A stretch of 9,066 bases of DNA from a virus (Duplodnaviria > Heunggongvirae > Uroviricota > Caudoviricetes). The position numbers and the translations under genes are program-made. The number at the start of each line of letters is the position of its first letter. Position 1 is the stretch's first letter. The stretch lies in the IMG/VR virus record IMGVR_UViG_2582580966_000020; one strand, 5' to 3'. Under the pieces are notes generated by a model. It had not been told where the DNA came from, made no database searches, and worked only from the letters and a program-made list of their open reading frames with translations. Shown one piece after another: positions 1-9,066 of this stretch.

Positions 1-1131
1 TCAAATGACCAGTTTTTTCCATTCCTTACCGCGTGCGTCGTTGTAAATATCGGTCATTTTTTGATTCGAATGGCCTAGCAAAATTTTGGTATCAACCCCC
101 TGCTCTCTGAACAATCGCTCTGATAAAGATCTCTGCTCATGGAAAGAGGGAGGGGTGCCATTAGCACGCCAGTTGTAATCCACAGAATCCCGGGCTTTTT
201 TAAATGCAACGGTTAATGTTGCTGGCTTAACCATCCCGCCGCGCTTAGCTGTCCCTTTCGCGTGATGGTGGTGCAATAGCCACGGACTAAGAACGCAATC
301 GCGGCAGGATGACACCACATCATCCAGGGTGAGATTTAATTTATCGCAACGCAGAGCCAGAGGGATGGCAATCCGGGTTCCTGTTTTTTGCTGTTCGACA
401 TGAAGATAACCATCCCGGATATCCGAAAATTGCATTTTGCAAATATCTGAAAGGCGCTGGCCTGTCATCAGTGCCAGCAGCATACCGCGCTGTAAAAAGT
501 AACCATCCTTTTCCGCTGCGTTATAAATCATCATCCACTCATCAAAAGTCAGTCGCTGTCTTGATATCCGCACCTGCGGTTTTTTTGCCGATTCTGCAGG
601 GTTAAAGCCTGGCGGGACATCGCCCGTTTGCTGAGCTTCCCGGAAAACATCGATCAGTACTTTCCTGAAAATTTGTCCCATTCTGTTATGTCCTCTGGCC
701 TTGTACTCTTCCAGTACTGATACCACATCTTTTACGGTTATGGCATCTAACGGTCTGGTGCCAAAACGTTCATCAAATACCCTGAGAGGGGCCGCTTTCT
801 GTTTCAGCGTGTTGAGTTTGATCTCGCCGTTTTCATATCTTTCCTGTTGAATTTTTCTGTAATTATTCAGAAAAATGGTAACGGTTGATGAACCGCCGGT
901 ATCACTAATAATTTTCTCCTGCAGACTGAGCATTTGTTCCATTTGCTGCCGGGCAAGACGGCTGTTCGCTTCTGCTGCAATAGTTTCTGCCAGTTTCTGG
1001 TCAATACTGCCGAGACCGTGATTTTTGCCTGTTATGGGATGCCTGTAACGCCAGTAAACTTTGTTATTTCTTTTGTCAAAATACGGAGATAATCCCGGAA
1101 CATCGGTTTTATATTTTCGCGGGCGCGCCAT
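1..1131 (-). CDS. int: Tyrosine site-specific integrase (lambda Int family), complete 376 aa
   Basis: ORF track 376 aa. N-terminus (RKYKTDVPGLSPYFDKRNNKVYWRYRHPITGK) resembles the lambda Int arm-binding region. C-terminus has catalytic-type motifs HEQRSL (HxxR) and LLGHSNQKMTDIY (His...Tyr). Its start is overlapped by an Xis-like gene, as in lambda xis-int. Stop codon at 1-3, so the attachment site lies left of the window. Confidence 0.9.
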   Translation of the reverse strand: MARPRKYKTDVPGLSPYFDKRNNKVYWRYRHPITGKNHGLGSIDQKLAETIAAEANSRLARQQMEQMLSLQEKIISDTGGSSTVTIFLNNYRKIQQERYENGEIKLNTLKQKAAPLRVFDERFGTRPLDAITVKDVVSVLEEYKARGHNRMGQIFRKVLIDVFREAQQTGDVPPGFNPAESAKKPQVRISRQRLTFDEWMMIYNAAEKDGYFLQRGMLLALMTGQRLSDICKMQFSDIRDGYLHVEQQKTGTRIAIPLALRCDKLNLTLDDVVSSCRDCVLSPWLLHHHHAKGTAKRGGMVKPATLTVAFKKARDSVDYNWRANGTPPSFHEQRSLSERLFREQGVDTKILLGHSNQKMTDIYNDARGKEWKKLVI

Positions 1132-1421: not shown

Positions 1422-3893
1422 TTAAAAATCAGCCTGATTCGGGATCAGTTTTTGCCAGATAACTGAAATGTATTTTGCCTGGTAACGGGCGTCATCAAGT
1501 GCATTATGGCGCTCACCTTCGAATGGAATAGCCGTTCTGGCATCGAAGTCTATGGCTTTCCCCAGCTCAACGATTGTGCGTACATCGCGATCGTTGTAGT
1601 AACGCCACGGGCAGGGGATCCCCTGCCGTTCGTATGAACGGCGCAAAATCGTGTTGTCGAAGTTGGCTCCATTTCCCCAGACCTGAACAAAAAATTCACC
1701 GGAGTTTTCGTCGATAAATTCCCGCAATTGTAACAGTGCATCATCTAACGGGATTTCATCGGTCATAATGGCAGACTGCGCTTCACGTGATTGCTTCAGC
1801 CACCTTTTAATGACGTCACGATCAATGACTCCGCCAGCAGTTTCCAGATCGATAGTCTTACTAAATTCCGGTCCCATATCTCCGGTTTGCGGATCGAAAA
1901 ATATTGCACCTATTGAGATAATCGGGGCATCAGGATTTTTTCCCATGGTTTCAAGGTCGATCATTAGATGGTCACACGTCCTGCTGGTGGATGTGATTTC
2001 TTGATGACCGTTCACCTTAATTGAGTGATCTGCCGTCTCGCCAGTTTCATTATCGCTATCGTGATGCTGATTGCCGCCAGTGTTCTCCTTGTGTGGATGT
2101 TCAGCGCCTTCCATTTCCTCCGGATTATCTTCCTGAACTTCAGGCTGATACTCTTCATCGAATGTTTCCTGGTATGTTGCGTCGCCCATTACCGCGCCAC
2201 AATCAGGGCAGTTGCCGCCGCCGGTCTGACCGCAGGCGGTGCAGACTTTTTCCGGTTCCTGTTGCGCTACTGGCTCAGGTTGTTTCGTTTCTGGCTCGTT
2301 TTGTTGCGTATTTGGGCTGTTTTGTTCCGCTTTCTGGTCGTTCTGTTCCGATTCTTGCTGGTTCTGGTTTACAGAATCGCGGGTCTGGTTCCCCTTAACC
2401 CATTTCGGATCATTCGGGTCGCTAATCCCTTCAACAAATTCACCACGTGATACTGCAAGCAGTTCATCGGCGTCAGGCTGGCTGATATTGGCTGCCTGCA
2501 TAATTTTGTTTACTTCGTCAGCGGTAACTTTTACTGACCCTGGTTGTGCGGTCGTGTCAGATGCACCAGTATTTTGTTGTGAACCTGAGTATGTACCGTT
2601 TTTGCAGGCGAAATATTCTTCTTTCGTGATTTCAGTAGCCCCAGCAGACAGCGCCTTATCCAGACCAGAAAGTTTGTTTGCGCGACCGTATTTTTCGCCA
2701 TCCTTGTCGGTGAAGAGGAAGTAGAACGGCCCCTCACGTTCTACAGATGGTTCGACTTCCACTTTGCATTCGGTTTTTTCGTTGCCCGGAATTGCCGTTT
2801 CCACTGCATCAGTTTCTGGTACTGGCGACGAGAGAGTATCAGTTGCGCTCTGATTTCTTCCTTCATCTTCAAACACGCCCTTTGTAGTCAGGTATTCAGT
2901 AATGTATTTGTTCAGTGCCACAGGGTCTTTGTGAATGTCGATCGGACGTTCACGGACAAGGCCAAAAATAGTCTGGCGGTCGTAGCGAAGGGCATCAGGC
3001 TGTTTGCGCATTGATGCCGAGATACGCTTCCAGTCTTCGCGGTCGTTGTCGATAACTTCATTTTTTGCCCAGCGATGGATGCTGCCGTCAATGTTTCCGG
3101 CATCCACATCACCAGGCCAGAGAGCGTAGGCCAGTTCGTCATCCAGTGTTTTCCATGTCTGCTTGTATTCGCGATGAATGGCAGCAATGACCGGGCTGAT
3201 TTTTCCTGTTGAATTTTCACTGTGCTGTTGATTGGCTCTGGCGCGGGCGAGATCAACAACAGACGTGTATTTTCCGGCTTCCTTGCGTTCACCTTCGCGA
3301 CGTTTTTTCCAGATGCGCATCTCTGCCTGAATTTCGGGCCATTTGGCACCAGGCTTACATTTATGCTTAACCCACCCGATGGCATGCAGCTTAAGCTCCG
3401 GATACATGGCGTTAACTTCTGGCATTTTCATCAACGCTTCAACGATATGTCCGTCGAATGTTGCCATGTCTTCCTGCAACAGTTCCTGCGCGCTAATCAC
3501 CATATCAACGGTGATGTTTTCACATGTGTCGAACTTAACCATGACAGCGTTCTGTACTTCAGGGGCCAGCTTGTCAAAAGTGACGTTCATCGGATCTGAT
3601 TCAGTCTCAACCGGGACAAAGGAAGCAGACTCCTCATCCCAGCGGTTTTCCTGCATATATTCAGCATCCCAGGAATCGAGGGCAGGGCGGGGTATACCGG
3701 GTTTATCCTCGCAGACAAGAAATTTATAAGCGCAGTCCTGAGCAGCCGGATAATGTTCCAGGAATTGCCAGTGAAATTTTGCGCGGGCGCGACGTTCATC
3801 ACCGGCTTCAATGGCAGTGGCTACAGCGACGGCACCTTCTTCCTTTATTGCCTGTTCGTCCGGAATGGCGGCGCAAATAAAGACTTTACTCAT
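1422..3893 (-). CDS. recE: RecE-like (exodeoxyribonuclease VIII family) mosaic protein, 823 aa: unknown N-terminal region, RecE-type Q/N/E-rich linker with CxxC-x7-CxxC zinc ribbon, C-terminal DnaQ-like DEDDh 3'-5' exonuclease domain
   Basis: Central segment (DADELLAVSRGEFVEGISDPNDPKWVKG...KQPEPVAQQEPEKVCTACGQTGGGNCPDCGAVMGDATYQETF, about 1971-2474) matches my recollection of the middle of E. coli K-12 RecE. C-terminal 182 aa (about 1425-1970) carry DEDDh motifs: MIDLETMG (D-x-E), WGNGANFD, HNALDD (H-x4-D). N-terminal 473 aa do not resemble the K-12 RecE N-terminus as I recall it. GAGG lies 9 nt upstream of the ATG. The symbol is given because of the linker homology; the catalytic domain is not the canonical RecE nuclease. 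Confidence 0.8.
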   Translation of the reverse strand: MSKVFICAAIPDEQAIKEEGAVAVATAIEAGDERRARAKFHWQFLEHYPAAQDCAYKFLVCEDKPGIPRPALDSWDAEYMQENRWDEESASFVPVETESDPMNVTFDKLAPEVQNAVMVKFDTCENITVDMVISAQELLQEDMATFDGHIVEALMKMPEVNAMYPELKLHAIGWVKHKCKPGAKWPEIQAEMRIWKKRREGERKEAGKYTSVVDLARARANQQHSENSTGKISPVIAAIHREYKQTWKTLDDELAYALWPGDVDAGNIDGSIHRWAKNEVIDNDREDWKRISASMRKQPDALRYDRQTIFGLVRERPIDIHKDPVALNKYITEYLTTKGVFEDEGRNQSATDTLSSPVPETDAVETAIPGNEKTECKVEVEPSVEREGPFYFLFTDKDGEKYGRANKLSGLDKALSAGATEITKEEYFACKNGTYSGSQQNTGASDTTAQPGSVKVTADEVNKIMQAANISQPDADELLAVSRGEFVEGISDPNDPKWVKGNQTRDSVNQNQQESEQNDQKAEQNSPNTQQNEPETKQPEPVAQQEPEKVCTACGQTGGGNCPDCGAVMGDATYQETFDEEYQPEVQEDNPEEMEGAEHPHKENTGGNQHHDSDNETGETADHSIKVNGHQEITSTSRTCDHLMIDLETMGKNPDAPIISIGAIFFDPQTGDMGPEFSKTIDLETAGGVIDRDVIKRWLKQSREAQSAIMTDEIPLDDALLQLREFIDENSGEFFVQVWGNGANFDNTILRRSYERQGIPCPWRYYNDRDVRTIVELGKAIDFDARTAIPFEGERHNALDDARYQAKYISVIWQKLIPNQADF

Positions 3894-3985
3894 TTTGTTT
3901 TACCTCATTACAGATTTAAGGGTGAACAAATCCCTGCCATTGCTGGCATATAAGAATGAAACCGGATATTTATTACGGAACTGTT

Positions 3986-4177
3986 TTAAAGACCTGCCGG
4001 GATTTCGTTATTATCCTGGTGAATAACTTTATCGACCGGGTAACAGTTACCGGGAATTTTCTGTTCGGTTGCTGCAGTCACACACTCCTGCATTGTCCTG
4101 TGAACACTGACTGCAATATCAACTGGCTCTCCGGAAACAAGAAAAACTGTCAGAACAAGTGCAAATGCTGTATTCAT
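3986..4177 (-). CDS. Small hypothetical protein with N-terminal signal-peptide-like segment and two Cys (likely exported), about 63 aa
   Basis: In-frame part of ORF 3986-4231. The Met at 4175-4177 forms an ATGA stop/start overlap with the upstream small gene, with AAGG 9 nt upstream. MNTAFALVLTVFLVSG is hydrophobic, followed by a polar region with C...C. Alternative starts at 4186 and 4231 cannot be excluded. Confidence 0.45.
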   Translation of the reverse strand: MNTAFALVLTVFLVSGEPVDIAVSVHRTMQECVTAATEQKIPGNCYPVDKVIHQDNNEIPAGL

Positions 4178-4362
4178 TGCCAGCATCCTTTTTGTATCGG
4201 ACGTAAACGGGCCAGCATTGAAAGAATGCATATTTTATTTAATAGCTCCCGTTCGTGTTTTCTCTTGTTAATGGCATCTTCAGTAAATACAGGGTTACTG
4301 ATAGTGACACCAATTTCAAAACAACCTTCAGACGTATTAATGTTTGGTAATAACGTTTCCAT
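4174..4362 (-). CDS. Small hypothetical protein, about 62 aa (early-left operon, kil/racC-like position)
   Basis: Part of ORF 4174-4467. ATG at 4360-4362 is preceded by GAGGA with 7-nt spacing. Stop TGA overlaps the start of the downstream small gene (ATGA). The longer 97-aa form would need a GTG start without a clear RBS. Confidence 0.4.
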   Translation of the reverse strand: METLLPNINTSEGCFEIGVTISNPVFTEDAINKRKHERELLNKICILSMLARLRPIQKGCWQ

Positions 4363-4923
4363 TATCGCGTCCTCAACAATGAATTTTGTGATGCGGTGCC
4401 TGGTGCCTCCAGGTGACGTTAACCAGTTAACAATTAACGCCGGATACAGAGAATCCACCCATAACACTGTTTTTGGTTTTAACTGTTCCGCGTGCGCTCA
4501 GCCGCATTCACCACATCACAAAATTCACTTTAAAAAGGGCGGCAGAGCAGTCACGGAGTAAAACTGATACCGCCAAACGTCACCAGAAAATTGATAACAG
4601 AGGGCGTTGCAGCGGGGTTGTCACTTAAGCGTATGGTCAACCTGACAACTCGGTGTCCTCAACGGGGAAGAAATACCCCCGCCATACTTACCGCCGCGCC
4701 ATTTCGCGGATTGCCACAACCGGAAACGCACGGTCGACGAAAATTTAACGACAGGCTATCTATGAACCAGCTACCTCGCCGGGCGCTTTCGCGTTATGGT
4801 CTGACTTTTCAGGGAAATATCCTTTCAGTAAACTGTCAGTGCCGGATGCTCACCCGTGTCCGGCGCACGCACTCCACCTCACCCGTGGAGAACTCCTTAA
4901 TCACCAACCCTCAGGAGGGTGAA

Positions 4924-5199
4924 ATGTCGACTGAAAATGATGAAATCATTAACTCCCTGATACGCCAGATTAATAATTTTGATAAAGCATTGCAACATGC
5001 TGCGGCGCGTAGTGATATAACTCTTTTAGCAATTTCATTTCTTGCATCTGTTATGGATAAAAATGAAGTCGTACGACAGAGTCTTGTTGATTATATCGAC
5101 TCGCTTCAACCCGGCACTTTCAATCATGAGAGCTTCAATCATGAGAAAGAGCATGTTAAGTCTGTAATTAATTCTCTTATTTTGAATCAAAAGAATTAA
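4924..5199 (+). CDS. Hypothetical 91-aa protein, independently transcribed accessory (moron-like) gene on the strand opposite to the early-left operon
   Basis: ATG at 4924 preceded by AGGAGG (4912-4917) with 6-nt spacing. AT-rich coding sequence. Intrinsic terminator 26 bp after the stop. Protein MSTENDEIINSLIRQINNFDKALQHAAARSDITLLAISFLASVMDKNEVVRQSLVDYIDSLQPGTFNHESFNHEKEHVKSVINSLILNQKN has no family I can recognise. The ORF-track form 4591-5199 adds an Arg-rich GC-rich extension with no RBS. Confidence 0.6.
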   Translation: MSTENDEIINSLIRQINNFDKALQHAAARSDITLLAISFLASVMDKNEVVRQSLVDYIDSLQPGTFNHESFNHEKEHVKSVINSLILNQKN

Positions 5200-5509
5200 T
5201 GCTTTTTGTTGCAAAGTAATTTTCAAGGGGTTCTATTCGAATCCCTTTCTTTTTCATTAACAAGCCAAACCCCTTATCAATGATGTCCATTAGATCCAGG
5301 AAGTATTTTTCATGTAAATCCTGGTTATCAGAGAGCTGCTTCTCTTCGTACAGCCCGATAAAGGCTCGGCGTACGTTACCGGATATATTGTCGATGGTTT
5401 CTTTTTCTACGGTACTCAGGTCAAGAGTCGCCAGTTGAGAGCGAACCACATTCGATGCCATTTCCTGGAATGGTACTGGTAAATCTTTAAATTCCATCGT
5501 CAACCTCAT
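5177..5509 (-). CDS. Hypothetical 110-aa protein (early-left operon; AT-rich; 3' end overlaps the convergent plus-strand gene by 23 bp)
   Basis: ORF track 110 aa. Start ATG 5507-5509 overlaps the stop of the upstream gene (TGATG coupling). An alternative in-frame ATG at 5497 has GAGG 6 nt upstream. No recognisable family. Confidence 0.6.
   Translation of the reverse strand: MRLTMEFKDLPVPFQEMASNVVRSQLATLDLSTVEKETIDNISGNVRRAFIGLYEEKQLSDNQDLHEKYFLDLMDIIDKGFGLLMKKKGIRIEPLENYFATKSINSFDSK
5225..5254 (+). terminator. Rho-independent terminator for the plus-strand 91-aa gene
   Basis: AAGGGGTTC (5225-5233), loop TATTC, GAATCCCTT (5239-5247): 9-bp stem with one G-U pair, followed by TCTTTTTC. On the minus strand the hairpin is not followed by a U-tract, so it is directional. 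Confidence 0.5.
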
Positions 5510-5742
5510 CAGTCAGTGTTTCTGGTTAACCAGCGACGCGCGCCAGCTTCAGTTTTAAACGTTTTGCTTCTGGTATATGTCATCGCGGTAAACGTGCCGT
5601 CCTGGTTGGGAAACACGCCGCATACCAGAGATTCGTTGTTGCCAAGCTCGATAGTATCCATGCTGACCTCATTTCCCCTTAACGCCGGGGTAGCGGAACA
5701 AAAACCTGCTGCATAGTTATTAAAGTTGAACCCTGCCGTCAT
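5509..5742 (-). CDS. Small prophage protein, DUF1391-like (YdaF/YdfA-like core of about 50 aa from the internal Met at 5661), first gene downstream of PL
   Basis: C-terminal 50 aa (MDTIELGNNESLVCGVFPNQDGTFTAMTYTRSKTFKTEAGARRWLTRNTD) match my recollection of the E. coli Rac/Qin YdaF/YdfA small proteins. The internal ATG at 5659-5661 has GAGG 5 nt upstream. The ATG at 5742 (full 77-aa ORF) has GAGG 9 nt upstream. The true start is uncertain. Confidence 0.6.
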   Translation of the reverse strand: MTAGFNFNNYAAGFCSATPALRGNEVSMDTIELGNNESLVCGVFPNQDGTFTAMTYTRSKTFKTEAGARRWLTRNTD

Positions 5743-5842
5743 GTTCTTACGCCTCGGGCTGGCTACTTAACCCCTGACCACTGCCTGGTAACTCGAGGTA
5801 TTGCCCTGTATTGTGTGGGACGGGATGGGTTGGTATGGGAAA

Positions 5843-5906
5843 ACTATAGGAAATGCCTAATTACTTGTCAATAGGCTATGCCTAATAATTTGGGCGCAAC
5901 CTAATA
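5843..5906 (-). promoter_or_regulatory. Left operator/promoter (OL/PL-like): leftward sigma70 promoter with repressor operator half-sites
   Basis: On the minus strand: -35 TTGACA (plus coordinates 5866-5871), 17-bp spacer, -10 TATAGT (5843-5848). Operator palindrome TAGGCTATGCCTA at 5872-5884, imperfect TAGGAAATGCCTA at 5847-5859, further GCCTAAT/ACCTAAT half-sites at 5855, 5880 and 5899. The same motif family is found at OR. Confidence 0.55.
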
Positions 5907-5979
5907 GGTGATGGTTTGTGGGAGAGGTAGTAGGAGTTAACTAACGGGAACTAGGAATTTCCCGTCGGACCATATAAGT

Positions 5980-6456
5980 TTAAGTTCCTGTCTTGGTGAT
6001 GTTCTGGCTTTTCCGTTTTGATTCTTGATTTTTCAGATAGTTAGCTACCTTCATTTCCATTGCGGCAATGTAGGCGCGAACGTCATAATCAACCCAACTA
6101 GGCTCCGTAGCATTTCCAGATAAGATGAAAGCCACAATTGCTTTTTTTTCATCAGAGGCGGCTTGATAAAGGCTGTTTATGTCTAAAAGTTCACTTTTTG
6201 TATCTGAAGTGGATGGGGTTGGTATGGGGTATTCGTTAAGCCCCCAATGCTCTGGACCAACCACATCAGAAAAGAAACGCCATAGTTCTGGAAGTTTGTC
6301 TTTACTTATCGAACCTTTCTTAATCCAGTCATGGATTGATGGTGGTTGGACTTTGAAATGACGTGCGATTTCCGCCTTTGATTTGACGGCTCCTGATGCA
6401 ATTTTTTTGTTAATGGCCTGCTCTATCGCTCGGCCTAAGTCTTTACCACTAAGCAT
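5980..6456 (-). CDS. racR: Prophage repressor, RacR-like (CI-type immunity repressor), 158 aa
   Basis: ORF 158 aa with an HTH-like segment (SKAEIARHFKVQPPSIHDWIKKG). Flanked on both sides by operator clusters and divergent from the ydaS/ydaT genes, the arrangement of Rac racR-ydaS-ydaT. AGGAG lies about 9 nt upstream of the ATG at 6456. Confidence 0.85.
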   Translation of the reverse strand: MLSGKDLGRAIEQAINKKIASGAVKSKAEIARHFKVQPPSIHDWIKKGSISKDKLPELWRFFSDVVGPEHWGLNEYPIPTPSTSDTKSELLDINSLYQAASDEKKAIVAFILSGNATEPSWVDYDVRAYIAAMEMKVANYLKNQESKRKSQNITKTGT

Positions 6457-6485
6457 TGCTTAATAGTCTCCTATGCGCATCGCGT

Positions 6486-6553
6486 TAGGCAATCCCTACT
6501 CTCGATGTATTAGGCATAGCCTATTGACAATTTCATTAGGCTAAGCCTAATAT
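6486..6553 (+). promoter_or_regulatory. Right operator/promoter (OR/PR-like) for ydaS-ydaT-replication operon
   Basis: Three operators at 25-26 bp centre spacing: TAGGCAATCCCTA (6486-6498), TAGGCATAGCCTA (6511-6523), TAGGCTAAGCCTA (6537-6549). -35 TTGACA at 6524-6529, 18-bp spacer, -10 TAATAT at 6548-6553. The third operator overlaps the -10. Confidence 0.6.
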
Positions 6554-6580
6554 TGTTGCGTGTTTTTTGGAGTTCATTCG

Positions 6581-6904
6581 ATGAAAAAAGATAACTATTC
6601 ATTCAAACGAGCTTGTGCTGTTGTCGGTGGGCAATCAGCAATGGCTAGGCTTTTAGGTGTATCTCCTCCAAGCGTAAATCAATGGATCAAAGGTGTACGT
6701 CAGTTACCTGCTGAGAGATGTCCTGCGATTGAACGAGCAACAAAAGGTGGTGTCCTGTGTGAAGAACTTCGTCCTGATGTTGATTGGACATACTTACGAC
6801 GCTCGTCATGTTATTCGCAGAATATGTCGATGAAGCAACCAAATGACGAAAACGATCATACCCGAAGCATCAAGAGGCAAATGATTCATGAAAATCAAAC
6901 ATGA
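6581..6904 (+). CDS. ydaS: Cro-like HTH regulator, YdaS family
   Basis: MKKDNYSFKRACAVVGGQSAMARLLGVSPPSVNQWIKGVRQLPAERCPAIERAT matches the YdaS family as I recall it. ATG at 6581 has GGAG 8 nt upstream and lies just downstream of the predicted PR start. The ORF-track GTG at 6560 would sit at or before the transcription start. Confidence 0.85.
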   Translation: MKKDNYSFKRACAVVGGQSAMARLLGVSPPSVNQWIKGVRQLPAERCPAIERATKGGVLCEELRPDVDWTYLRRSSCYSQNMSMKQPNDENDHTRSIKRQMIHENQT

Positions 6905-7313
6905 GCACATCCGCATGGCGATGAATGCCTGGGCATACCCTGATGGTGAGAAAGTTCCTGCAGCTGAAATAGCCCGGACTTATTTCGAACTGGGGATGAC
7001 GTTCCCTGAACTGTACGACGACAGCCATCCGGAAGCCCTGGCCCGTAATACCCAGAAAATTTTCCGTTGGCTGGATAAAGACACCCCTGATGCTGTTGAA
7101 AAAATGCAGGCTCTGTTACCGGCGATCGAAAAGGCGATGCCGCCTTTGCTGGTGGCCCGTATGCGCAGCCACAGTTCTGAATATTACCGTGAGATCGTCG
7201 AACGGAGGGATCGGCTGGGGAAGGATGTCGATGATTTTGTTGCGTCAGCGGTTGTTTTGTATGACCAGATGAATCGCGGCGGCCCGGCAGGGAATGCTGT
7301 GGTGATGCACTAA
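6888..7313 (+). CDS. ydaT: YdaT-family protein (toxic partner of the RacR-controlled ydaS-ydaT pair), 141 aa, divergent
   Basis: Starts MKIKHEHI and ends VVMH, like K-12 YdaT as recalled, with similar length. Overlaps the ydaS 3' end by 17 bp. The middle of the protein differs from K-12. Confidence 0.75.
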   Translation: MKIKHEHIRMAMNAWAYPDGEKVPAAEIARTYFELGMTFPELYDDSHPEALARNTQKIFRWLDKDTPDAVEKMQALLPAIEKAMPPLLVARMRSHSSEYYREIVERRDRLGKDVDDFVASAVVLYDQMNRGGPAGNAVVMH

Positions 7314-7335
7314 AAGCACGGTGTTCGGGGGTTTT

Positions 7336-8298
7336 ATGAGCAGCAAGCTTCATGGTCTTGTCTGGGAAGGGTGCGCCTTCACCGGCATGATCTTATCCAG
7401 GGTGGCGGTTATGGCCCGTCTTGCAGACTACAGCAATGACGAGGGCGTGTCATGGCCTGCCATTGAAACTATCCGGCGTCAGATCGGTGCAAGAAGTGAA
7501 TCCACAGTGAAATCGGCTATTGCAGAACTGGCGAAAGAGGGCTGGCTGACGAAGGAAGAGCGTAAGGTCGGTGGGCGTAATGTAAGCAATATCTATCGGC
7601 TTAATGTGGAAAAACTCGAAGCAGCTGCGGCGGCGGCGCGTGAGTCATATAAACCGAAAAGAAAAATTAGCCCGGCAAAAAATGACCCGTTAACAGTTGA
7701 CCCGTCAAATATTGACCCCTCAACGGTTGACCCGTCAAATTTTGATGGATCAACTGTTGATAAAAAACTGCCGATTAGGGGGGCGATGATTGACCCCGAT
7801 CCGTCAGTATTAAAACCTGATCCGTCAGATAAAAGATCTTCTTGTCCGGACGCTTCGCAACCGGACCCGCAGACGGCTGAACAGGATTTTTTAACCCGAC
7901 ACCCTGACGCGGTTGTGTTCAGTGCGAAAAAACGCCAGTGGGGAAGTCAGGAAGATTTGGTGTGCGCACAGTGGATCTGGGGACGAATCGTGAGTCTTTA
8001 CGAGCAGGCGGCCAGCGATGATGGCGAGATCACTAGACCGAAAGAACCCAACTGGACAGCATGGGCCAATGACGTTCGCACAATGCGGATGCTGGATGGC
8101 AGAACTCACAGACAAATTTGTGAAATGTTTGGGCGTCTCCAGCGGGATTCGTTCTGGGTAAAAAACATCATGAGTCCGGCAAAACTCCGGGAAAAATGGG
8201 ATGAACTGGTTATCCGCCTGGGGCGTTCGCCTGCGCAGCGTTGCGTGAATCACATTTCTGAACCGGACACTGAAATTCCGCCGGGCTTCAGGGGGTAA
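7336..8298 (+). CDS. Phage replication initiation / replisome organiser protein (O-like; N-terminal HTH, C-terminal DnaT-like domain), contains origin iterons
   Basis: N-terminal winged-HTH-like region (SWPAIETIRRQIGARSESTVKSAIAELAKEGWL). Central peptide repeats (VDPSNIDPSTVDPSNFDGSTVD) are encoded by tandem 15-bp iterons. C-terminal region is typical of DnaT-like replication proteins. Start is given at ATG 7336; the ORF-track GTG at 7321 is the alternative. Confidence 0.75.
   Translation: MSSKLHGLVWEGCAFTGMILSRVAVMARLADYSNDEGVSWPAIETIRRQIGARSESTVKSAIAELAKEGWLTKEERKVGGRNVSNIYRLNVEKLEAAAAAARESYKPKRKISPAKNDPLTVDPSNIDPSTVDPSNFDGSTVDKKLPIRGAMIDPDPSVLKPDPSDKRSSCPDASQPDPQTAEQDFLTRHPDAVVFSAKKRQWGSQEDLVCAQWIWGRIVSLYEQAASDDGEITRPKEPNWTAWANDVRTMRMLDGRTHRQICEMFGRLQRDSFWVKNIMSPAKLREKWDELVIRLGRSPAQRCVNHISEPDTEIPPGFRG
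7681..7770. repeat. Tandem 15-bp iterons (putative prophage origin of replication) inside the O-like gene
   Basis: GTTGACCCGTCAAAT at 7696-7710 and again at 7726-7740, with ATTGACCCCTCAACG between them and degenerate units on either side. Each unit has internal dyad symmetry (TTGAC...GTCAA). A further GATCCGTCAG repeat lies at 7797-7806 and 7819-7828. Confidence 0.6.
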
Positions 8299-8338
8299 GT
8301 GTTAATTTCTGGTCATGAGGTAATTTTCAGGAGGGCTT

Positions 8339-8761
8339 GTGGCAAAAGTTTTTACACAAGAAGAGCGGGAGAAAATTAAAGGGCAGGTTGTTGAACTCGT
8401 ACGCCAGAGTGGGCGCGAGACGTTACGACAACTGGAAACTAAAACTGGGGCAACAAGATATCTGATGAGCGTTCTGACCAGAGAGCTGGTTGCCAGTGGC
8501 GATGTATACAACTCTGGTTACGGGTTATTCCCGTCTGAACAGGTGCGTAAGGACTGGCAAAATGCCCGTAAAAAGCTCTCAAGGGCAAAGCCGAAGAAAC
8601 CATCTGCGGTTGATCCGGACCTTATCTGGTCATTACCTGACGGAGAAATACGTCGCTACGACAGGCGTCAGAACATAATCTGTCGCGAGTGCCGGAAGAG
8701 CGAAGTTATGCAGCGCATATTGTCGTTTTATCAGGGTAATTTTCAGAAGGTGCTGTTGTGA
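8339..8761 (+). CDS. Hypothetical 140-aa protein in the replication module (possible winged-helix DNA-binding protein)
   Basis: GTG start at 8339 with GGAGGG 3 nt upstream. It follows the O-like gene, where a helicase loader (P or DnaC-like) would be expected. No recognisable family. Confidence 0.55.
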   Translation: MAKVFTQEEREKIKGQVVELVRQSGRETLRQLETKTGATRYLMSVLTRELVASGDVYNSGYGLFPSEQVRKDWQNARKKLSRAKPKKPSAVDPDLIWSLPDGEIRRYDRRQNIICRECRKSEVMQRILSFYQGNFQKVLL

Positions 8762-8810
8762 GCCAAATTAACAATCGGAACTTCGTGAAGAGAAAGCATA
8801 ATCCAAATCT

Positions 8811-9066
8811 GGTGATGCTGCCAACTTACTGATTTAGTGTATGATGGTGTTTTTGAGGTGCTCCAGTGGCTTCTGTTTCTATCAGCTGTCCCTCCTGTTC
8901 AGCTACTGACGGGGTGGTGCGTAACGGCAAAAGCACCGCCGGACATCAGCGCTATCTCTGCTCTCACTGCCGTAAAACATGGCAACTGCAGTTCACTTAC
9001 ACCGCTTCTCAACCCGGTACGCACCAGAAAATCATTGATATGGCCATGAATGGCGTTGGATGCCGG
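8811..9066 (+). mobile_element. IS1 insertion sequence, left end (partial; continues beyond the window)
   Basis: Begins with the IS1 terminal inverted repeat GGTGATGCTGCCAACTTACTGAT at 8811, followed by sequence I recognise as IS1 including the insA start. Confidence 0.9.
8866..9066 (+). CDS. insA: IS1 transposase InsA (N-terminal 67 codons, truncated by window end)
   Basis: GTG start at 8866, 56 nt into the element. Translation is [67 protein letters not shown], the zinc-finger N-terminus of InsA. The ORF-track entry 8837-9049 is in a different frame and is not insA. Confidence 0.85.

Follow-up and report, generated by a model that had tools for sequence, protein, structure and literature searches.

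The window, that is the whole 9,066-nucleotide stretch of DNA analysed here, carries the early region of a Rac-like lambdoid prophage and runs at its right-hand end into an insertion sequence of the IS1 family. The features on which the analysis draws are listed below by their positions in the window, and the loci with which it was compared are cited as L001 to L019.

1-1131, minus strand: integrase gene, the first in the window, followed by a small xis-like ORF
1422-3893, minus strand: gene for a protein of 823 aa whose C-terminal domain is of the Rv2179c-like DEDD 3'-5' exonuclease type (Pfam E = 9e-63)
5980-6456, minus strand: RacR repressor gene, 90% identity to the K-12 protein
7321-8298, plus strand: O-like replication initiator gene, intact, 325 aa, with an N-terminal Pfam HTH_36 domain; the PGAP start corresponds to 7336
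7677-7760, no strand: iteron-like array with a 15-bp period, TTGACCCGTCAAnnn, inside the initiator gene
8339-8761, plus strand: DUF977 gene, intact, 140 aa (Pfam DUF977, phrog_142), PHROG 'Ren-like exclusion protein', immediately preceding the nin-type region
8758-8832, plus strand: frame of 24 codons (20 without IS1), most likely non-coding, with a vestigial coupled start site
8762-8810, no strand: proximal part of the ~105-bp AT-rich spacer between DUF977 and a 70-aa gene, unannotated in L001 and L004; the rest lies beyond IS1
8802-8810, no strand: left copy of a 9-bp target-site duplication, TCCAAATCT; the same 9 bp stand at both IS1 ends in L008
8811-9066, plus strand: insertion sequence of the IS1A type, of which the left 256 nt are present; the window end falls inside the element
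8811-8833, plus strand: left terminal inverted repeat of IS1 (IRL), GGTGATGCTGCCAACTTACTGAT, defined by alignments of the phage P1 IS1 inverted repeat and of K-12 IS1A
8866-9066, plus strand: first 67 codons of insA with a GTG start at IS1 position 56, as in K-12 insA1

Gene order of the prophage early region

Between the gene for the 823-aa protein and RacR lie small genes of the dicB, DUF1482 and DUF1391 types. RacR is divergent from homologues of ydaS and ydaT (Pfam YdaS_toxin, 103.7 bits, and YdaT_toxin, 40.8 bits, both above the cut-offs), and the plus-strand order after it is YdaS/Cro-like, YdaT-like, the 325-aa initiator and the 140-aa DUF977 protein. The same gene names are given by PGAP at a 99.6% identical locus, L001, of strain EC21Z-078. 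The lethality of RacR loss through YdaS and YdaT ('addiction') is established only for K-12 (PMC5700377, PMC5700373), and the reading of these two proteins as toxins has been disputed in favour of Cro and CII roles (PMC5917428). The link that the first-pass annotation drew between retention of such an addiction module and disruption by IS1 is speculation.

We note that the 823-aa gene, although located at the recE position, is not RecE-like, that it carries YdfE_N and YdfE_C domains, and that no recT-like partner is visible in the window between this gene and xis. Of the 45 differences that separate the window from L008 (or L004), about 36 are concentrated at 2385-2739, within the part of the gene that encodes the acidic low-complexity middle of the protein. 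This pattern points to a recombination patch or a hypervariable segment in otherwise near-identical prophages.

The initiator aligns with phrog_391 ('replication initiation O-like') over residues 6-325 and profile positions 1-298 of 298 (E = 2e-115), and its C-terminal third matches the 'DnaD-like helicase loader' and 'replisome organizer' families (phrog_2514, E = 3e-26). The reading frame is free of frameshifts relative to L001 or L004. The array inside the gene is composed of 4-5 repeats of TTGACCCGTCAA at 15-bp spacing, partly forms a 33-nt inverted repeat and encodes a repeated VDPSN/VDPST peptide. In phage lambda, ori lies within the O gene, and by its sequence the array is a probable origin of replication. 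The adjacent 140-aa protein covers the Pfam DUF977 profile with residues 1-136 (profile positions 1-134 of 134, E = 1e-31) and matches phrog_142 with E = 8e-47, from whose PHROG annotation the predicted 'Ren-like' character is taken. Exact copies of the protein are present in 273 blocks of the collection, and a literature search on DUF977 found no functional study.

The genes that follow the spacer can be read in the relatives. The next gene begins ~105 bp after the DUF977 stop codon, is preceded by a GGAGG of its own and specifies a 70-aa product of unassigned function (phrog_4659), after which the order continues with DUF4014, further small ORFs, hok, DUF968, rusA (RusA) and a Q-type antiterminator; the region downstream of DUF977 is of the nin type. 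In L001, a GC-rich tetraloop hairpin (4785-4815, GCCGCCC-GAAA-GGGCGG) separates the ATG of the DUF4014 gene from its Shine-Dalgarno sequence, GGGAGG, with a minimum free energy of -18.8 kcal/mol (z = -3.9), and the same motif is found after the spacer in L011, L013 and L015. According to the folding model, formation of the hairpin would place the start codon at a normal distance from the Shine-Dalgarno sequence, and the hairpin may exert translational control or represent a mosaic 'linker' element.

The IS1 boundary and the far end of the insertion

Window positions 8811-9066 match nt 1-256 of the IS1A annotated in E. coli K-12 MG1655 (768 bp) with 100% identity, and the annotated IS1 of phage P1 with its terminal inverted repeat likewise aligns at 100% from exactly 8811. 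The inverted repeat that the first-pass annotation had placed at 8811 is confirmed by the start of both alignments, and the element is IS1A, which is already known. Its left and right terminal repeats (IRL and IRR) match at 18 of 23 bases. The 67 insA codons present are identical to those of K-12 insA1 and lie on the strand of the prophage early-right operon, while the insB part falls outside the window; in IS1, insB' comes after insA and is joined to it by a programmed -1 frameshift. The full InsAB' product encoded in L008 matches Zn_ribbon_InsA, HTH_Tnp_IS1 and DDE_Tnp_IS1. The standard properties of IS1 comprise a length of 768 bp, imperfect inverted repeats and a target duplication of 8-9 bp (PMC12428005).

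Because the window ends 256 nt into IS1, our conclusion about the far junction is carried over from two other genomes with the same left junction. The exact left junction is absent from 5,426 complete E. coli genomes (megablast with 8300-9066), where many prophages match up to 8811, and the left-junction pattern had no match in genome contigs sampled at one genome per species. An exact look-up of the DUF977 protein in public assemblies found the complete chromosome CP170296.1 (L008), which is readable over 12.4 kb. This locus is colinear with window positions 2339-9066, has an IS1 transposase gene where the window has its IS1 and differs by one SNP over 4677-9066, with most of its 45 differences lying at a distance, at 2385-2739. 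The IS1 of L008 extends from 6473 to 7240, exactly 768 bp, and ends at its IRR with …GTTGGAGTCATTACC. It is flanked on both sides by TCCAAATCT, at 6464-6472 and 7241-7249, and the 5183 bp located 3' of it show 4 mismatches to the empty-site allele L004.

In the second genome, IMG 2619619131, the left junction is found on contig L003 (99.83% identity to the window, 11 differences) and the right junction on a separate contig, L017, where the IRR is followed by TCCAAATCT and then by GAATAATTAAG…. Compared with K-12 IS1A, the IS1 copies of the two genomes have a pair of SNPs in common (262 A>T and 444 T>G), a pattern that fits one ancestral insertion event. The 9-bp duplication that had been predicted for 8802-8810 is found at the far IS1 end in both of these genomes, and the same 9 bp are present as a single copy in the empty-site alleles.

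We propose, with a probability of about 0.9, that the window records a simple intergenic insertion of IS1A into a Rac-like lambdoid prophage of E. coli. An IS1A-type element would have transposed into the AT-rich, non-coding spacer of ~105 bp between the DUF977 ('Ren-like') gene and the first small nin-type gene, and simple transposition would account for a complete 768-bp element, a 9-bp duplication of TCCAAATCT and no loss of flanking DNA. The right junction in the source genome would then join the IS1 IRR to TCCAAATCTGAATAATTAAG. It is quite unlikely that the IS1 of the source genome is no longer simple, a recombination with another IS1 or an IS1-adjacent deletion having eliminated or displaced the remainder of the prophage. 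Such an event would be compatible with a window that ends inside IS1 with its far side unseen, with the median of 11 IS1-matching places carried by E. coli genomes and with strain STEC384, where an IS1 in the same spacer (L015 2178-2945) has no target duplication and ~25 bp of the spacer are missing; however, in both genomes with the same left junction, the matching right junction is present and the downstream prophage is unaltered. The arrangement in STEC384 itself, judged from its junctions, suggests an adjacent deletion or an IS1-IS1 recombination.

The short frame and the spacer downstream of DUF977

The GTG at 8758-8760 overlaps the TGA (8759-8761) of the 140-aa ORF in a GTGA arrangement, and the frame that it opens, VSQINNRNFVKRKHNPNL, extends over 18 codons to the IS1 edge, as the first-pass annotation had correctly observed. 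Inside IS1 the frame runs for 6 codons more (VMLPTY) before reaching a stop codon at 8830-8832, giving a total of 24 codons in the window. With 3 stops per 64 codons, the chance of finding ~20 open codons after a start codon is ~0.4, and so the frame itself provides no evidence for a gene.

The empty site is seen in L001, L004-L007, L009, L010 and the O157:H7 locus L012, the near-identical relatives among the empty-site alleles having 99.3-99.6% identity. In L001, …AATCCAAATCT is directly followed by GAATAATTAAGTTCAGC… with no IS1 between them. The frame of the empty-site alleles comprises 20 codons and terminates with …NPNLNN*, that is, two codons past the insertion point; the only sequence of the frame that lies beyond this point is AAT AAT TAA (Asn-Asn-stop), both in these alleles and after IS1 in L008 and L017. 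In more diverged spacers, substitutions and indels leave a frame of 11 codons in L011 and of 10 codons in L013. The 20-codon frame receives no gene call in the PGAP annotation of the relatives, and a tblastn search with the 20-aa peptide against 50,697 phage records, which has low power for so short a peptide, returned chance-level matches only (E >= 0.7).

These observations bear directly on the earlier proposal that IS1 truncates the gene following DUF977, a helicase loader or other replication gene, and thereby leaves the prophage replication-defective and cryptic. The proposal draws on a start codon with a weak Shine-Dalgarno sequence that overlaps the DUF977 stop, on a frame that is open up to IS1 and on the real genes that other mosaics begin at the same overlap. 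Yet in the uninterrupted allele the frame ends 2 codons past the point of insertion, so that the remainder of a gene, which was to be sought beyond IS1, amounts to the two asparagine codons and the stop, and the homologous N-terminus that was to be sought in relatives is represented by frames of 10-11 codons and a peptide without homologues. Where a helicase loader had been expected, every relative examined has the 70-aa ORF, and in none does a loader gene lie 3' of DUF977. In strain RM9088 the order is replication protein P (a lambda-P-type loader), DUF1627 and DUF977, which places the annotated P protein upstream of DUF977, and the O-like initiator of the window itself matches DnaD-like loader families. 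The initiator and DUF977 are both intact and nothing in the window indicates a replication defect. Truncation of a replication gene is therefore scarcely tenable.

Across the mosaics, DUF977 ends in a conserved GTGA stop/start overlap. At this overlap real annotated genes begin in L014, L015 and L002 (O111 strain 11128, STEC384 and 22F46, respectively), and past the first few codons these genes are unrelated in sequence. The Shine-Dalgarno sequence that precedes the overlap (window 8745-8761) reads GGAGG where a real downstream gene is present and GAAGG in the window lineage. We suggest that in other mosaics the true downstream gene would be translationally coupled to DUF977 through GTGA and the strong GGAGG, and that in the window lineage the downstream sequence may have been replaced and the Shine-Dalgarno sequence weakened to GAAGG, leaving a frame that would natively stop after 20 codons. 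From this comparison the start site is most likely a vestige at a mosaic boundary and the frame non-coding spacer.

A frame of this kind could also be a real micro-ORF, encoding a small protein or a coupling or leader peptide made by ribosomes that terminate on DUF977, in which case IS1 would change its C-terminus from …NLNN* to …NLVMLPTY* (the empty-site product is represented by MSQINNRNFVKRKHNPNLNN). The GTGA overlap, the GAAGG motif located ~6-8 nt upstream and the identity of the frame in many near-identical prophages, including O157:H7 L012, are what such a micro-ORF would show; but this identity is at the DNA level among close relatives, the diverged L011 and L013 spacers cut the frame to less than its full length, and it has neither a PGAP call nor protein-level homologues. 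We regard a functional micro-ORF as highly improbable.

The sequence around the target has an A+T content of 66-76%, compared with 52% for the window. Promoter, terminator and Rfam scans of the spacer gave no match, and it contains no consensus promoter to drive the downstream genes independently. On the reading as a simple intergenic insertion, no annotated or conserved gene would be interrupted, and the initiator, its internal iterons and DUF977 would be left untouched. The window would then be best described as an intact Rac-like early region, comprising the immunity genes, the O-like initiator and DUF977, followed by an intergenic IS1A, rather than as a disrupted replication gene. As a caution for annotation, a short frame that runs into the end of an insertion sequence does not equate to a truncated gene until the empty-site allele has been checked.

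Predicted transcriptional consequences and relation to known systems

That IS1 insertions in operons are strongly polar has long been established, and on this basis the likeliest effect of the insertion, inferred from its position, would be reduced read-through from the early-right promoter into the 70-aa ORF, DUF4014, hok, DUF968, rusA and Q. Since IS1 is oriented with the operon, derepression of the prophage would also be expected to transcribe into insA, and a rise in IS1 transposition upon transcription from upstream has been reported (PMC12428005). If the predicted polarity holds, the insertion could dampen late-gene expression of the prophage, which would be a routine step in prophage decay. 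The significance of the insertion otherwise lies in correct annotation.

Other IS1 copies are found nearby. RM9088 (L019 2091-2858) carries an IS1 in the same AT-rich spacer, with a 9-bp duplication, ACTGGAGGC, located in the Shine-Dalgarno sequence of the 70-aa gene. Two further copies in the neighbourhood are present at L002 4314-5081 (strain 22F46) and L018 1877-2644 (strain NH-21), one of this pair, with the duplication CTGCGGTTG, being located within the DUF977 ORF and the other, with the duplication TTCTTGGCT, in unrelated DNA downstream. The five nearby IS1 copies all have the same orientation, a result that is biased by the search, which joins same-strand pieces only.

It is conceivable, albeit unlikely, that the conserved AT-rich spacer CTGAATAATTAAnTTnAGCACTGTAAATAAAAT…CCTTAACnGGAGG, which comes after the DUF977 and small-gene block, is hit repeatedly by IS1 in lambdoid prophages of E. 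coli, where the element would act as a polar block and help to lock prophages in a non-lytic state. At least three independent insertions, in the window lineage, RM9088 and STEC384, bear on this scenario, under which the polar IS1 would separate the replication module from the Q antiterminator, and early-right read-through after derepression would boost expression of the IS1 transposase. By a rough estimate, ~0.5 insertions in a 60-bp interval would be expected by chance over ~3,700 genomes, and 2-3 are observed. Since IS1 is known to prefer AT-rich DNA, the excess is no more than weakly suggestive of a hot spot; the insertions in this spacer may reflect a weak one.

The element itself shares with the IS1A of K-12 the 256 nt of identity, the IRL and the insA start, and in the genomes that share the junction it conforms to the IS1A type in its length of 768 bp, imperfect IRR, 9-bp target duplication and AT-rich target. 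Compared with K-12 IS1A, the full copies in L008 and L003/L017 carry 2-3 SNPs, and the location alone is new. Classic polar IS insertions in operons include those in the early-right operon of lambda. As in these cases, the element in the window lies inside a polycistronic early operon, between cistrons, on the same strand and upstream of Q. In contrast to them, the present case is known from sequence alone, and N-like antitermination, if the phage has it, could suppress the polarity.

Within the host prophage, RacR is 90% identical to the repressor of K-12 Rac (racR-ydaS-ydaT-ydaU-ydaV-ydaW), and the YdaS and YdaT families follow in the same order, whereas YdaU (DUF1376), YdaV (ATP-binding) and YdaW are replaced by the O-like HTH_36 initiator and DUF977. 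The left arm also differs from Rac, with the YdfE/Rv2179c-like exonuclease gene and dicB/DUF1391 genes of the Qin type. K-12 YdaW (L016 5253-5813) was considered as a homologue of DUF977 and ruled out (BLASTP E = 1.0). The two prophages share the immunity region and have unrelated replication modules. The replication module of the window instead resembles the O-P-ren-nin arrangement of lambda, where likewise an O-like initiator that contains iterons precedes a 'Ren-like' gene, small nin-type genes, rusA and Q. The DUF977 gene (phrog_142) corresponds in position to lambda ren, which lies after O and P, although, in contrast to lambda, the mosaic in the window has no separate P-type loader gene.
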